Assembly: GCA_963719075.1 (NCBI GenBank)
Contig: CAVRAN010000007.1
Coordinates: 31,709-95,708 of the forward strand
Reading direction: 5' to 3'
DNA length: 64,000 nucleotides
Origin: an uncultured Verrucomicrobiae bacterium
GTDB lineage: Bacteria; Verrucomicrobiota; Verrucomicrobiia; Limisphaerales; UBA11358
Positions within the stretch are counted from its first letter, which is position 1. Every line of letters begins with the position of its first letter. The notes beneath the pieces were generated by a model, which was not told the DNA's origin, did not search any database, and saw only the letters and a program-made list of their open reading frames with translations. Below, piece after piece: positions 3,856 to 64,000 of this stretch. The position numbers and the translations under genes were made by a program.

Positions 3856-4680
3856 ATGGGTTGGTTCACTGACCGGCATTTCTTTTTGCTCGCCGTAATT
3901 TTTTACGGCTTGAGTTCGGCCTACTCGGTTTTCCTCTGGCGAAAAGGTTTTCGCACGGCCGACCGCGCGAATTATTTCCTGCTGCTCACCGCGTTCTCGC
4001 TGCACACGCTCGCCATGTTCCTGCGCGGCTTTAATTTCAAGCAATGCCCAGTCAATAATCTTTACGAAGCCACAACCTTCATCGCGTGGACCATCGTTGC
4101 TGCGTATCTCGTCATCGGCCTGCTACCTCGACTGCGTTTCCTCGGCGCGTTCGCATCGCCGGTTCTGTTTGCCATGGGTGTCTTCGCGCTCATGCCCGCG
4201 CTCGATCCGCCGCACGCATTGCAGCCGAATTTTTCCAATGGATTAACGAGTCTGCACGCGGCCTTAATTCTTCTGGCCATCGGCGCGTTCGGATTAAGCG
4301 CCGTCGCCGCGCTGATGTTTTTGACGGAAGAACACGATTTGAAGTTTCACAAACTGCGCGCGATTTTTTCCATGCTGCCCCCGATTCAACGGCTCGAACG
4401 CGTGATGAATGGCCTTTTGCTTTGCGGAATTGTTTTGCTCACAGCGGGGCTTGCGTTCAGTCCGTTTCTGCTCAAGGAAAAATTCGGCGTCTATTTCAAA
4501 AACGACCCACTGCTCGATTATTCGATTTTTATCTGGCTGTTTTATTTTGTGCTGTTGGTTGCGCGCTGGAAATTCGGTCAAAACGGACGCCGTTTCGCCT
4601 GGAGCGCGGTCGGCAGCTTCGCGTTCATCCTGCTCACGTTTTGGGGATTTTTACTTTTGTCACCCATCCATCATCCATGA
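3856..4680 (+). CDS. ccsA: Cytochrome c biogenesis protein CcsA-like membrane protein
   Basis: Multi-TM protein with conserved His residues, directly upstream of hemA. Confidence 0.75.
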   Translation: MGWFTDRHFFLLAVIFYGLSSAYSVFLWRKGFRTADRANYFLLLTAFSLHTLAMFLRGFNFKQCPVNNLYEATTFIAWTIVAAYLVIGLLPRLRFLGAFASPVLFAMGVFALMPALDPPHALQPNFSNGLTSLHAALILLAIGAFGLSAVAALMFLTEEHDLKFHKLRAIFSMLPPIQRLERVMNGLLLCGIVLLTAGLAFSPFLLKEKFGVYFKNDPLLDYSIFIWLFYFVLLVARWKFGQNGRRFAWSAVGSFAFILLTFWGFLLLSPIHHP

Positions 4681-61412: not shown

Positions 61413-61841
61413 TCAATGTCCGTCTTTCCTGTCCTTTCCATGCGTGGCGTCACGCCTTGGCTGAAAATGTCCATTGTAATCCGTTCGGTAATGGTCATTG
61501 CGAATGGCGTGGTCCCGCCAATCAGCATGGCCTCTTTCCCATCCATGGAAACGCTCCAGCCTGAACGGTTCACAGAACAGCCAGACATTGCCGGGTCCCA
61601 GATAATAATATTGGTCACCCACGAGACCGACGTATTCGTAACCATCCCAGGCGTAGCTGTCAGGAACCATTACCGGAGCCACATACACCGGTGGCGGAGC
61701 TGCATACACCGGCGCCGGGGCCACAATCACGAATGGTTGAAACGCCACCTCTCCATTCGGCTCAACGACACAGCCTGACACCAACACCAATCCCCCTGCC
61801 GCCATTGACAGGATAAAGACACGCAAAGATTTTGTTTTCAT
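61413..61841 (-). CDS. Putative lipoprotein (Pro-rich, His/Arg-rich tail)
   Basis: Lipobox VSGC, APPPVYVAP, W/Y-rich segment. Confidence 0.7.
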   Translation of the reverse strand: MKTKSLRVFILSMAAGGLVLVSGCVVEPNGEVAFQPFVIVAPAPVYAAPPPVYVAPVMVPDSYAWDGYEYVGLVGDQYYYLGPGNVWLFCEPFRLERFHGWERGHADWRDHAIRNDHYRTDYNGHFQPRRDATHGKDRKDGH

Positions 61842-62075: not shown

Positions 62076-62690
62076 TCAGGTCACCATTGCCGGCATCGTC
62101 GCGCTCCACTCGCTGTATTGCGTCGAACCGCCGATGGCGCGGATGCGCACGTTACACATCGTGCCCGGCGTCAGACCCGTCAGCACGATGCCGCGCGTGT
62201 TCGGATAAATGCCCGCTTCCTGCCATGCGCCCGTGCCGATGCTGAACTGCACCTGATACGCCTTGGCGTTCGTCACCGCCTGCAAATCCACCGTCATCTG
62301 CGCCGTCAAGGAATTGTCCAGCGTGAACACCGGCTGTGTCAGCGGCGACTGCGCCGTGTTGGGAGTCACCACGTCGAAGCCCGAGGAGAGCACCTGCGAG
62401 ACGTTGGGCAGCGCGAGGCTTTGCACATACGCCGCTGTCTGGCGCAACGCCGAGACCAGCGCATCCCGCGCCTCGTTTTTAGCGGCAGTATCCATCGTCC
62501 CGCCTTGCGCCGCAGCCGTGATGGCATTTTGAAACGCCGTCTGTAATGCTATCAATGCGGCGATCAACACCGGCAGGTTTGGAAACAGCGGGTTTGTTTT
62601 GATGCACGCGATGACGAGGATCGCGAAGCTGTTCAGTTCATCGTCAGGAAAGGCCGCAAATGAAAGTGCGACCCGTATTATCTTTTTCAT
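62076..62690 (-). CDS. Helical-bundle plus fibronectin type III domain protein (no clear signal peptide)
   Basis: N-terminal amphipathic helices, SGF hinge, C-terminal FN3 signature LTGLTPGT..NVRIRAIG...YSEWS. Confidence 0.8.
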   Translation of the reverse strand: MKKIIRVALSFAAFPDDELNSFAILVIACIKTNPLFPNLPVLIAALIALQTAFQNAITAAAQGGTMDTAAKNEARDALVSALRQTAAYVQSLALPNVSQVLSSGFDVVTPNTAQSPLTQPVFTLDNSLTAQMTVDLQAVTNAKAYQVQFSIGTGAWQEAGIYPNTRGIVLTGLTPGTMCNVRIRAIGGSTQYSEWSATMPAMVT

Positions 62691-62759
62691 TGTCCATTTT
62701 AGTTTTCCCTCTAAAAAGGTTCCCAGAAGCGTTGCTGCCCTGTTCCCCTGCACACCGGG

Positions 62760-62788
62760 ATTTAATCAAACACCATTCCAACCGTCAA
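62760..62788 (-). promoter_or_regulatory. Putative sigma70 promoter between the array and the FN3 gene
   Basis: Minus strand TTGACG-N17-TTAAAT preceded by an A/T tract (UP-like). Confidence 0.45.
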
Positions 62789-62820
62789 GTGAAATTTTTT
62801 TCCCTCTTCTTTTTGGCATA

Positions 62821-63135
62821 ACTCACTGTGATAAAATGGCAACTCGCTGTGATTTTGAAACAACTTACTGTAATAAAATGACAACTCACTGTAATTCCGG
62901 TGCAAAACACTGTAATGGAGAGACAACTTACTGTAATAAAACGTCAACTCACTGTGATTCCAGAACAACTTACTGTAATGGAGAGGCATCTTACTGTAAT
63001 AAAATGACAACTTACTGTGATTCCAGAGCAAAACACTGTAATGGAAGGACAACTTACTGTAATGGAGAGACAAAACACTGTGCTTTTGGAACAACTCGAA
63101 GTGATTTTAGAACAAAACGCTTTGATAAAATGGCA
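62821..63135. repeat. 21-bp tandem array, 15 units, conserved 14-nt part plus 7-nt variable part
   Basis: Units A(C/A)(T/A)(C/T)ACTGT(A/G)AT-N7-CA at exact 21-bp spacing. Confidence 0.95.
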
Positions 63136-63214
63136 AAAACGGCTGCTTTTGACCTGTTGCGCTGGAAAATGTCTTGTTTCAGACAGCAATAATCAAAAAA
63201 ACGGGCGAAATAAC

Positions 63215-63960
63215 GTATGCGGCTGACGGTCCACGTCTAGTTTCCGGCGACAGACCGTGAGACCATGGCCGGATGGATACATTAAAAACTGGAACGAGCC
63301 GGCGGCATTTCACTTCTAAACGGCGGCAGCGATTACTGGCAAAATTCCATCAAAGCCGATTAACCCAAAACGAGTTTGCCGCCCAGCACAACATCGGGCT
63401 GTCCAGTCTGAGCCGATGGTTGCGGCTGGAACGTGACGCCGTTCCGCCAAAGGTAAAATTCCAAGAAGTCCGGCTGCCCAACCCGGCTTCACGCTGGCCG
63501 GTCGAAGTCGTCAGCCCACAGCCGGTATTGAATCGGCTGCACCGGGCTATGGAGTTGATACGGAGAAAGACCTTGCCGCAAGGGTTGCTCTGACAGGCGA
63601 TTGATTACACGCTGAAACGATGGACGGCTTTGAACCAATTTATCACCGACGGCATTCTTGAAATTGATAACAACAAAATCGAAAACTCGATTCGGCCGTC
63701 GGCCCTTGGAAAACGCAATTGGATGTTCATTGGCCATCCCGAAGCTGGGGAACGCAGCGCCGTGATTTACACTTTGCTGGGTGGTTGCCGGCGGCTCGGC
63801 ATCAACCCGTTCGATTATCTGAAAGATTTGTTTACCCGTTTGCCCGCCGCCAAAATTACTCAGATCAAGCAGTTCACGCCAGCGATGTGGGTCCGGGCCA
63901 GAACTGGAGCCAGCCTGCCCGCCGAGCAAACTTGCCCTAAACTTGACAATAAACAATTGC
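63215..63960 (+). mobile_element. Internally deleted IS66-family element (tnpA fused to the C-terminal part of tnpC); right boundary approximate
   Basis: Left end GTATGCGG at 63215; TnpA-like HTH ORF from 63273; TnpC motifs AIDY, LEIDNNKIENSIRP..LGKRNWMFIG, GINPFDYL; in-frame TGA at 63591; no tnpB. Confidence 0.85.
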
Positions 63961-64000
63961 CCCCCCATTCAATTGTATTTAATTTGGCTGCTAGGAACTG

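Follow-up and report, generated by a model that had tools for sequence, protein, structure and literature searches.

A 21-bp tandem array upstream of an FN3-domain gene family in Verrucomicrobia: a candidate enhancer-like element

Organization of the locus

The window (the whole 64,000-nucleotide stretch analysed, from the genome of an uncultured Verrucomicrobiae bacterium) carries near its end a minus-strand gene, a short promoter region, and a tandem array. The features are as follows.

62076..62690, minus strand: gene of the 204-aa protein, stop codon included; N-terminal domain and C-terminal FN3 domain
62691..62753, minus strand: predicted 5' untranslated leader, its start site placed from the promoter elements
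62760..62765, minus strand: -10-like hexamer TTAAAT, read by eye
62765..62780, minus strand: decayed sigma-54-type element TGGAATGGTGTTTGAT, homologous to TGGCAC-N5-YTGCT of orthologs
62783..62788, minus strand: -35-like hexamer TTGACG, read by eye, 17 nt before TTAAAT (the pair is absent from the consensus-scan list)
62789..62801, minus strand: A-run and TTTCAC, AAAAAAATTTCAC, adjoining the array on the gene side
62806..63139, no strand: whole repeated element with sharp ends, CTTCTTTTTGGCAT ... ATGGCAAAAA
62821..63135, no strand: array of 15 units at 21-bp pitch, laid out unit by unit
63273..63998, plus strand: IS66-family fragments on the far side of the array

An earlier sequence-only reading had placed on the minus strand the array, then the A-run with TTTCAC, TTGACG (62788-62783), and the 204-aa ORF (62690-62076), and this order was confirmed. 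The element 62806..63139 is the stretch held in common with a second copy elsewhere in the genome, and the bounds of that homology are these bases. The IS66 fragments comprise a helix-turn-helix (HTH) ORF (63273-63593) and the C-terminal part of a transposase from 63630.

The 204-aa protein was divided into an N-terminal domain without a named match (about residues 1-105) and a C-terminal FN3 half. Pfam alone gave a weak FN3 match (E 0.017); a profile of 37 family sequences matched fibronectin in PDB with an E of 3.1e-15 over profile positions 116-198, which identifies the domain as fibronectin type III, and PF00041 was present in many relatives. Thus, the FN3 half of the earlier domain reading stands, whereas for the helical bundle proposed for the N-terminal half the best PDB profile matches were weak ones to helical proteins (E 0.35). 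In public data, 5952 cluster representatives (50% identity) match the N-terminal domain, and the family consensus begins with an alternating [RHK]-V-x-L-x-F, followed by a helix. As counted from the sequence, the protein has a net charge of zero (11 K+R versus 11 D+E). Searches with Pfam, NCBIfam, PHROGs, PADLOC, and PDB profiles found no DNA-binding domain in it. NCBIfam, PADLOC, and Pfam returned no names for the proteins, PHROGs gave only FN3-type tail matches (E 3e-4), and a search for longer fused forms of the family returned multi-FN3 proteins only.

Structure of the array

Laid out at 21-bp pitch, the array resolves into the 15 units and all 15 seven-nucleotide blocks that had been listed for it. 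Each unit, in the orientation of the gene, consists of the 14-nt core AT[CT]ACAGT[GA]AGTTG and a 7-nt variable block. Tandem Repeats Finder reported the 21-bp repeat at 62820-63081 (12.5 copies), with a degenerate continuation to 63126, and recovered the expected 63-bp higher order at 62860-63063 with 3.2 copies, 84% matches, and a score of 310. Autocorrelation of the array gave a match fraction of 0.85 at lag 63, with the background at about 0.40, a periodicity far in excess of chance. Units do decay at the distal end, as had been noted, but degenerate units occur at both ends of the array. Among the arrays of this kind, the triplet structure is not general; 42-bp higher orders are the commonest, and 63 bp occurs in some.

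Across 50 units from the arrays of the window and three relatives (L096, L074, and L093), the core carries 1-2 bits per position, with the anchor forcing 7 of the core positions, against 0.1-1.0 bits for the 7-nt block. The 10.5-bp phasing of A/T dinucleotides in the window array is the strongest in the genome (5.7; background 95th percentile 0.87). With head-to-tail copies and a variable copy number, the array is also by definition a tandem repeat or minisatellite (VNTR).

Arrays upstream of the gene family

The sequence-only reading had proposed a test of whether homologs carry upstream periodic arrays of non-conserved sequence, and the result was strongly positive, with negative controls run alongside. 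A region was scored as carrying an array when, inside 800 bp, the best autocorrelation lag (range 5-70) fell at 20-22, 41-44, or 62-66 and a 105-bp window reached 55% matches or more. The counts were as follows.

Paralogs in the window's genome: upstream arrays 6/6, downstream 0/6
Homologs in other genomes of the order: upstream arrays 18/24, downstream 0/23
Metagenome relatives, including two near-identical kin of the window: upstream arrays 16/21, downstream 0/18
Random 800-bp windows of the window's genome: 27/2000 pass the periodicity criterion
Upstream of acs, other genomes of the genus: arrays 1/28
Upstream of icd, other genomes of the genus: arrays 1/28

Pooled, the downstream flanks gave 0/47 arrays and the housekeeping upstream regions 2/56; since the relatives are not independent, these figures are counts and not probabilities. 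The order homologs share 27-48% identity and come from matches in 21 of 121 genomes. Loci were obtained for 27 of the 36 places outside the window's genome, from which two partial matches and one locus with a short upstream region were dropped.

The window's genome encodes five further full-length paralogs of the 204-aa protein. The six paralog arrays end about 120-220 bp before the start codon and have a pitch of 21 or 22 bp, and their unit sequences are mutually unrelated. A search of 40 relatives for the window array's own sequence gave a single weak match. In this genome, acs and icd each carry an array.

The gene and its array had been taken to form one module. The conserved pairing stands, but a private partnership does not, as about 36 arrays lie beside many unrelated genes. 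In the window's genome (2.93 Mb, 15 contigs), Tandem Repeats Finder found 36 arrays with a 21/22-based period and a length of 90 bp or more; about five of them are atypical or likely to be coding, and there are two duplicate pairs. The smallest period was 21, 22, 42, or 66 in 35 of the 53 arrays of at least 90 bp. They represent about 15 sequence families, and those of four paralogs recur at further loci. In 31 of 35 arrays, about 12 positions form a high-information core next to about 7 positions of clearly lower conservation (mean-information difference of at least 0.6 bit), and four arrays fell below that value. The neighbours include acs, icd, nadC, squalene synthase, an ABC transporter, a papain-like peptidase, and others.

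Two more unnamed small-protein families have upstream arrays, one of 204 aa and one of 234 aa. For the second 204-aa family, arrays were found upstream at 15/22 loci, own-genome members left out, and downstream at 1/26, members counted; the corresponding counts for the 234-aa family were 8/23 and 0/23, and four partial loci were dropped from each set. The second 204-aa family, in which about 55-70 nt separate the array from the start codon, was treated as unrelated to the FN3 family because hhalign gave a probability of 0.1 for the pair. In sampled DNA from genomes with the families, two arrays were counted in 400 kb (G140), four in 400 kb (G067), and 36 in 2.93 Mb (G000, the window's genome), versus none in 400 kb (G033), none in 400 kb (G045), and one atypical heptamer-based array in 302 kb (G037) among those without. 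This co-occurrence of arrays and families, three genomes against three, is only suggestive.

History of the locus and variation of the array

The second copy of the element lies at G000:C5:54884-55223, has 79% identity to the window element, and has no FN3 gene beside it. An ortholog of 90% identity (L074) lies on a metagenome contig that is collinear with two places: beyond the far side of the array with the C5 locus, and on the near side with the window, through the array, promoter, gene, and downstream genes at 90% identity. Because one contig joins the two sides in this way, a single ancestral locus was split at the array in the window's genome, and the window half now abuts the IS66 fragments, which mark the rearrangement. 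The C5 copy had been considered as a twin array and regulon member; it was rejected as such, since by the same collinearity it is the other side of the rearrangement.

One metagenome DNA run contains a form of the array shorter by 63 bp net (three units), and in L096, a 100%-identical relative, the units differ from those of the window. Orthologs sharing 66-100% identity show slow drift of the core (ATCACAGTGAGTTG, ATCATCGCGAGTTG, ATCAAAGCGTTTTG) and free change of the 7-nt block and copy number, while the pitch remains constant at 21.

Promoters and expression

In the alignment of the 175 nt upstream of 15 relatives, TGGCAY-N5-YTGCT is conserved about 90-125 nt before the ATG and reads as a textbook sigma-54 promoter. 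In several relatives it is preceded by a TGTGA-N6-TCACA palindrome, which we take to be CRP-like; the place of this palindrome in the window is 62789..62801, where one half-site is kept in the promoter alignment. The window has TGGAAT-N5-TTGAT in the same alignment column as the sigma-54 motif of the orthologs. Here the -12 GC is lost, and the sigma-70-like TTGACG-17-TTAAAT overlaps the decayed element.

A strict sigma-54 motif was present in 11/24 order homologs and 13/23 metagenome relatives, that is, in 24/47 family members outside the genome, at 30-173 nt before the start codon and mostly at 70-125 nt. It was found in 0/28 acs controls and 0/6 paralogs of the window's genome, and the whole 2.9-Mb genome has 42 matches on both strands. 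At the 20 sigma-54-positive loci with an array, the array is at least 111-324 bp long and ends 13-523 bp before the -24 element (rough median about 140); these array-to-promoter distances are the zone where sigma-54 activators bind. The genome encodes one rpoN and has seven Sigma54_activat matches at E<=1e-43, corresponding to enhancer-binding proteins. Beside its arrays, about 38 in this count, no strict motif was found (about 0.14 expected), so the arrays of this genome, if functional, would use sigma-70-like or ECF-like promoters. Its other modules have a common TTGAAAGATT-N13-CGTATTA promoter or sigma-70-like boxes, and in one pair of close paralogs the homology is confined to the stretch from -143 through the stop codon. 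Arrays, promoter types, and genes thus occur in free combination.

The gene is expressed, being covered by contigs from three peat metatranscriptome libraries. Two of these contigs extend as far as 62714 and 62740, slightly short of the predicted start (near 62752-62755). On the array itself there was one low-depth contig from a single library (62985-63135); 62741-62984 had no contigs in two RNA libraries that cover the gene, and contigs break in repeats.

An enhancer-like element as the favoured reading

Our tentative preference, held with considerable doubt, is that the array is a set of phased tandem protein-binding sites that would act as an enhancer-like or UAS-like element upstream of the promoter of the helical and FN3 gene. 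The 15 sequence-specific sites, two helical turns apart, would all face the same side of the DNA, and the array, lying directly upstream of the promoter, would work as a bacterial enhancer (upstream activating sequence). For most of the family, the promoter served would be sigma-54-dependent, the class that needs an upstream-bound activator. In the window's lineage, the sigma-54 promoter has lost its -12 GC and is overlapped by a sigma-70-like promoter, with the array retained. A protein on the core, either an enhancer-binding protein or another factor, would activate transcription by binding.

This preference follows from the position of the array, its two-turn pitch, the constrained core beside a free spacer, and the retention across the order, together with sigma-54 promoters below about half of the arrays. 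Of the three functions that the sequence-only reading had put forward, the protein-binding scaffold fits best, as the array lies upstream of a promoter, keeps a two-turn pitch, and retains its core. The same gene-plus-array pairing across the whole order points to a candidate enhancer-like control element of an undescribed sort.

Several results argue against it. Arrays persist at non-sigma-54 promoters, which enhancer-binding proteins do not serve, and this tells against that form of the reading in particular. The cores of the paralogs are wholly different, and there are about 15 array families versus seven enhancer-binding proteins. Dyad symmetry, typical of known activator sites, is missing from many units, which are direct repeats. 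A gene for an enhancer-binding protein lies beside the module of one paralog, and tblastn gave none at the other loci fetched. In the second 204-aa family the array leaves little room for a separate promoter, and at housekeeping genes even genomes of one genus do not share the upstream arrays.

For the protein that would bind the array, two candidates seem to be live, a trans-acting activator and the product of the module itself. Two other binders were tried and rejected. A LytTR regulator was set aside as PF04397 had no matches in the 93%-complete genome, while control genomes gave matches; an AraC-type neighbour was found in 1/21 metagenome relatives, and the other upstream neighbours are all different.

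Alternative explanations

In the second of these candidates, the product of the downstream gene would bind and coat its own array, after the manner of plasmid iteron-Rep pairs or ParR/omega-type centromere binders, regulate itself, and act on arrays of the same family. Each paralog has its own array family, and four of these families turn up elsewhere in the genome; upstream arrays are carried by no fewer than three unrelated small-protein families (204-234 aa), and arrays and families co-occur by genome; by eye, the [RHK]-V-x-L-x-F strand could read DNA. We nevertheless regard this as unlikely, as the Pfam, NCBIfam, PHROGs, PADLOC, and PDB profile searches gave the protein no DNA-binding domain, its net charge is zero, the twin of the window array is a rearrangement remnant and no regulon member, and the genome co-occurrence is based on 3 genomes versus 3. 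A wider version, in which the arrays and the three small-protein families would form one undescribed chromosomal system, seems equally unlikely to us. There, each protein would polymerise on its own array as a phased nucleoprotein filament, much as plasmid iteron or centromere binders do, and arrays of the same family newly seeded before other genes would place those genes under its control.

A lower probability is given to architectural DNA, in which in-phase bends would make a curved or stiff spacer or a looping aid with no sequence-specific binder. Curved DNA can substitute for a bending protein at sigma-54 promoters. The conservation of the 21/22-bp pitch and not of the sequence agrees with this reading, as does the 10.5-bp A/T phasing of the window array, the strongest in the genome. 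However, only 15/35 arrays exceed the background 95th percentile for such phasing, G+C-rich array families lack it, and uneven conservation within units and a core kept among orthologs would be unexpected if the period alone mattered. Pure curvature accounts for the pitch but not for the core, and we consider it improbable.

An ordinary or selfish minisatellite, arisen by lineage-specific slippage or duplication with the 21-bp repeats merely persisting, would account for the varying copy number (the form shorter by 63 bp and the differing units of L096), the sporadic arrays beside acs and icd, and the involvement of arrays in rearrangements. A neutral repeat would not, however, stay confined to the upstream side of family members in many genera and at identities as low as 27%, which makes this explanation quite improbable.

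Finally, the two other earlier proposals, processed small RNAs and a heptad-repeat peptide, are very unlikely, as is a role of the transcribed array as a protein sponge, and none of these was borne out. In their favour are one low-depth RNA contig inside the array (62985-63135) and 3/6 frames open through it. Against them, Rfam gave 0 matches at E<=1, and the two strands fold no better than shuffles (z-scores +0.73 and -0.90). A 22-bp pitch, with which heptads cannot be encoded, was found in the array of one paralog and in two others of its sequence family. By our own arithmetic, a stop-free frame in a 21-mer has a chance of about 0.7, so the number of open frames is near the chance level and carries no weight, and for each of the three frames the homology with the second copy gives out ahead of the stop codon.

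Comparison with known systems

Among the known systems closest to the arrays are sigma-54 enhancers, in which several adjacent activator sites stand tens to hundreds of bp before a GG-N10-GC promoter. In about half of the gene family, a promoter of this type follows the array. At the sigma-54 promoter norVW, each of three neighbouring NorR enhancer sites is reported to be required (PMC2831303). In contrast to the arrays, known sigma-54 enhancers have 1-5 usually dyad-symmetric sites, whereas here there are 5-15 contiguous direct repeats at an exact 21-bp pitch, which also precede non-sigma-54 promoters, that of the window included.

Plasmid iterons (R6K, F, P1, RK2) are direct repeats of about 20 bp at two-turn pitch, with a T-rich far side and a promoter and gene next to them. 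Iteron replicons carry 17-22 bp direct repeats in tandem with a pitch of about 22 bp, a form that the array shares. Unlike in iteron replicons, the downstream protein has no Rep or winged-helix signature in Pfam, NCBIfam, or PDB profiles, and the chromosomal contigs of a single genome carry six modules plus about 30 more arrays.

In type Ib/II centromeres and omega heptads (parC of R1/pSK41, pSM19035), phased repeats stand before a promoter, and a small protein encoded downstream binds them cooperatively and regulates itself. No ParA/ParM-type NTPase gene was found in the ORFs flanking the window module or the other modules examined. Unlike partition centromere binders, the proteins here have 204-234 aa and no ribbon-helix-helix match.

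AraC/XylS and LytTR operators consist of non-palindromic direct repeats 21 bp apart, with conserved boxes and a free spacer. Those operators have two repeats, versus 5-15 here. CRISPR and TIGR arrays share the alternation of a conserved unit with a variable block and an A/T-rich, leader-like flank. CRISPR repeats have 23-55 bp with spacers of similar length, whereas this unit has 21 bp in all and a variable part of 7 nt, too short for a guide; moreover, folding gave no RNA structure beyond shuffles on either strand, and dozens of arrays per genome stand before ordinary promoters, unlike either system.

Significance

Bacterial promoters are usually controlled via one to few operator sites. Here, runs of 5-15 phased candidate sites precede a large family of unnamed genes, with conservation over an order of Verrucomicrobia from soil and peat. 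We searched the literature for such arrays and found no description.

If the arrays are enhancers, they would be, to our knowledge, the most extended natural sigma-54 enhancers known, and they would offer a natural series for the effect of site number and helical phase on output. If instead the small proteins bind the arrays, these proteins would be a new DNA-binding family within a new kind of chromosomal array-protein module, and if arrays and proteins are one system, the N-terminal domain would be a new DNA-binding fold. On either reading, the promoter class and the cis-element give a first handle on a large unannotated family.

A split ancestral locus and the array flanks

Comparison with L074, a metagenome contig carrying a 90%-identical ortholog of the FN3 gene, indicates that two loci in the genome of the window (G000; contigs C1 to C14 below) are the halves of one ancestral locus:

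G000 C5:54884-55223 (L002), second array copy
window 62806-63139, array element of the FN3 gene

By the same comparison, the ancestral locus comprised a hybrid kinase/response-regulator gene, a leader, the array, and the FN3 gene. Both derived loci keep a full array copy, IS66 fragments adjoin the window half, and the rearrangement breakpoint falls at the array.

The far end of many G000 arrays is flanked by leader-like stretches, in which T-runs with a terminal G (TTTTTGCC and GTTTTTA types) are spaced about 10 bp apart. The leader is common to arrays within one sequence family. Examples are as follows:

window 63136-63200
C13:~3900-3940
C5:~115450-115520

Other repeats

Some 21-bp repeats lie inside ORFs:

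window 61673-61725, 2.5 copies, within the lipoprotein-like ORF (142 aa) that follows the FN3 gene
C1:354269-354491 and C9:201329-201581, near-perfect, in long ORFs

The window repeat, a coding sequence with no relation to the intergenic arrays, specifies a stretch rich in proline, valine and tyrosine. The other two (10-12 copies, 95-99% matches) could be either heptad repeats that are coding or arrays of very recent origin; one of them sits in the 5' end of an ORF for a GHL10 glycosidase.

Many G000 intergenic regions carry a palindromic element (GTAGGGAC...GTCCCTAC type), roughly 30-60 bp long, which looks like a REP-type repeat; these flanks are examples:

C3:35180-35260
C13:~3640
C1:~202560

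Promoter-associated elements

In the ortholog promoter alignment, several orthologs (L081, 2880-2925; same column in L084, L088, L091, and L092) have a perfect, CRP/FNR-like TGTGA-N6-TCACA palindrome immediately 5' of their sigma-54 promoter. Only TTTCAC remains of it in the window promoter region. A response-regulator-type sigma-54 activator gene (C3:366717-368078; Response_reg, Sigma54_activat, and HTH_8 domains) lies directly 3' of the FN3 paralog C3:368234-368839; such a neighbour was seen at this paralog only and at none of the other loci examined.

Five unrelated G000 genes, each behind a different array family, share a near-identical promoter-like block of about 55 bp:

C3:~368950
C14:~36370
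C1:~403520
C1:~535010
C1:~227050

This block, TTTTTTCACTTTTTTTGAAAGATT-N13-CGTATTACTAT-AGGGG, may be an ECF-type promoter.
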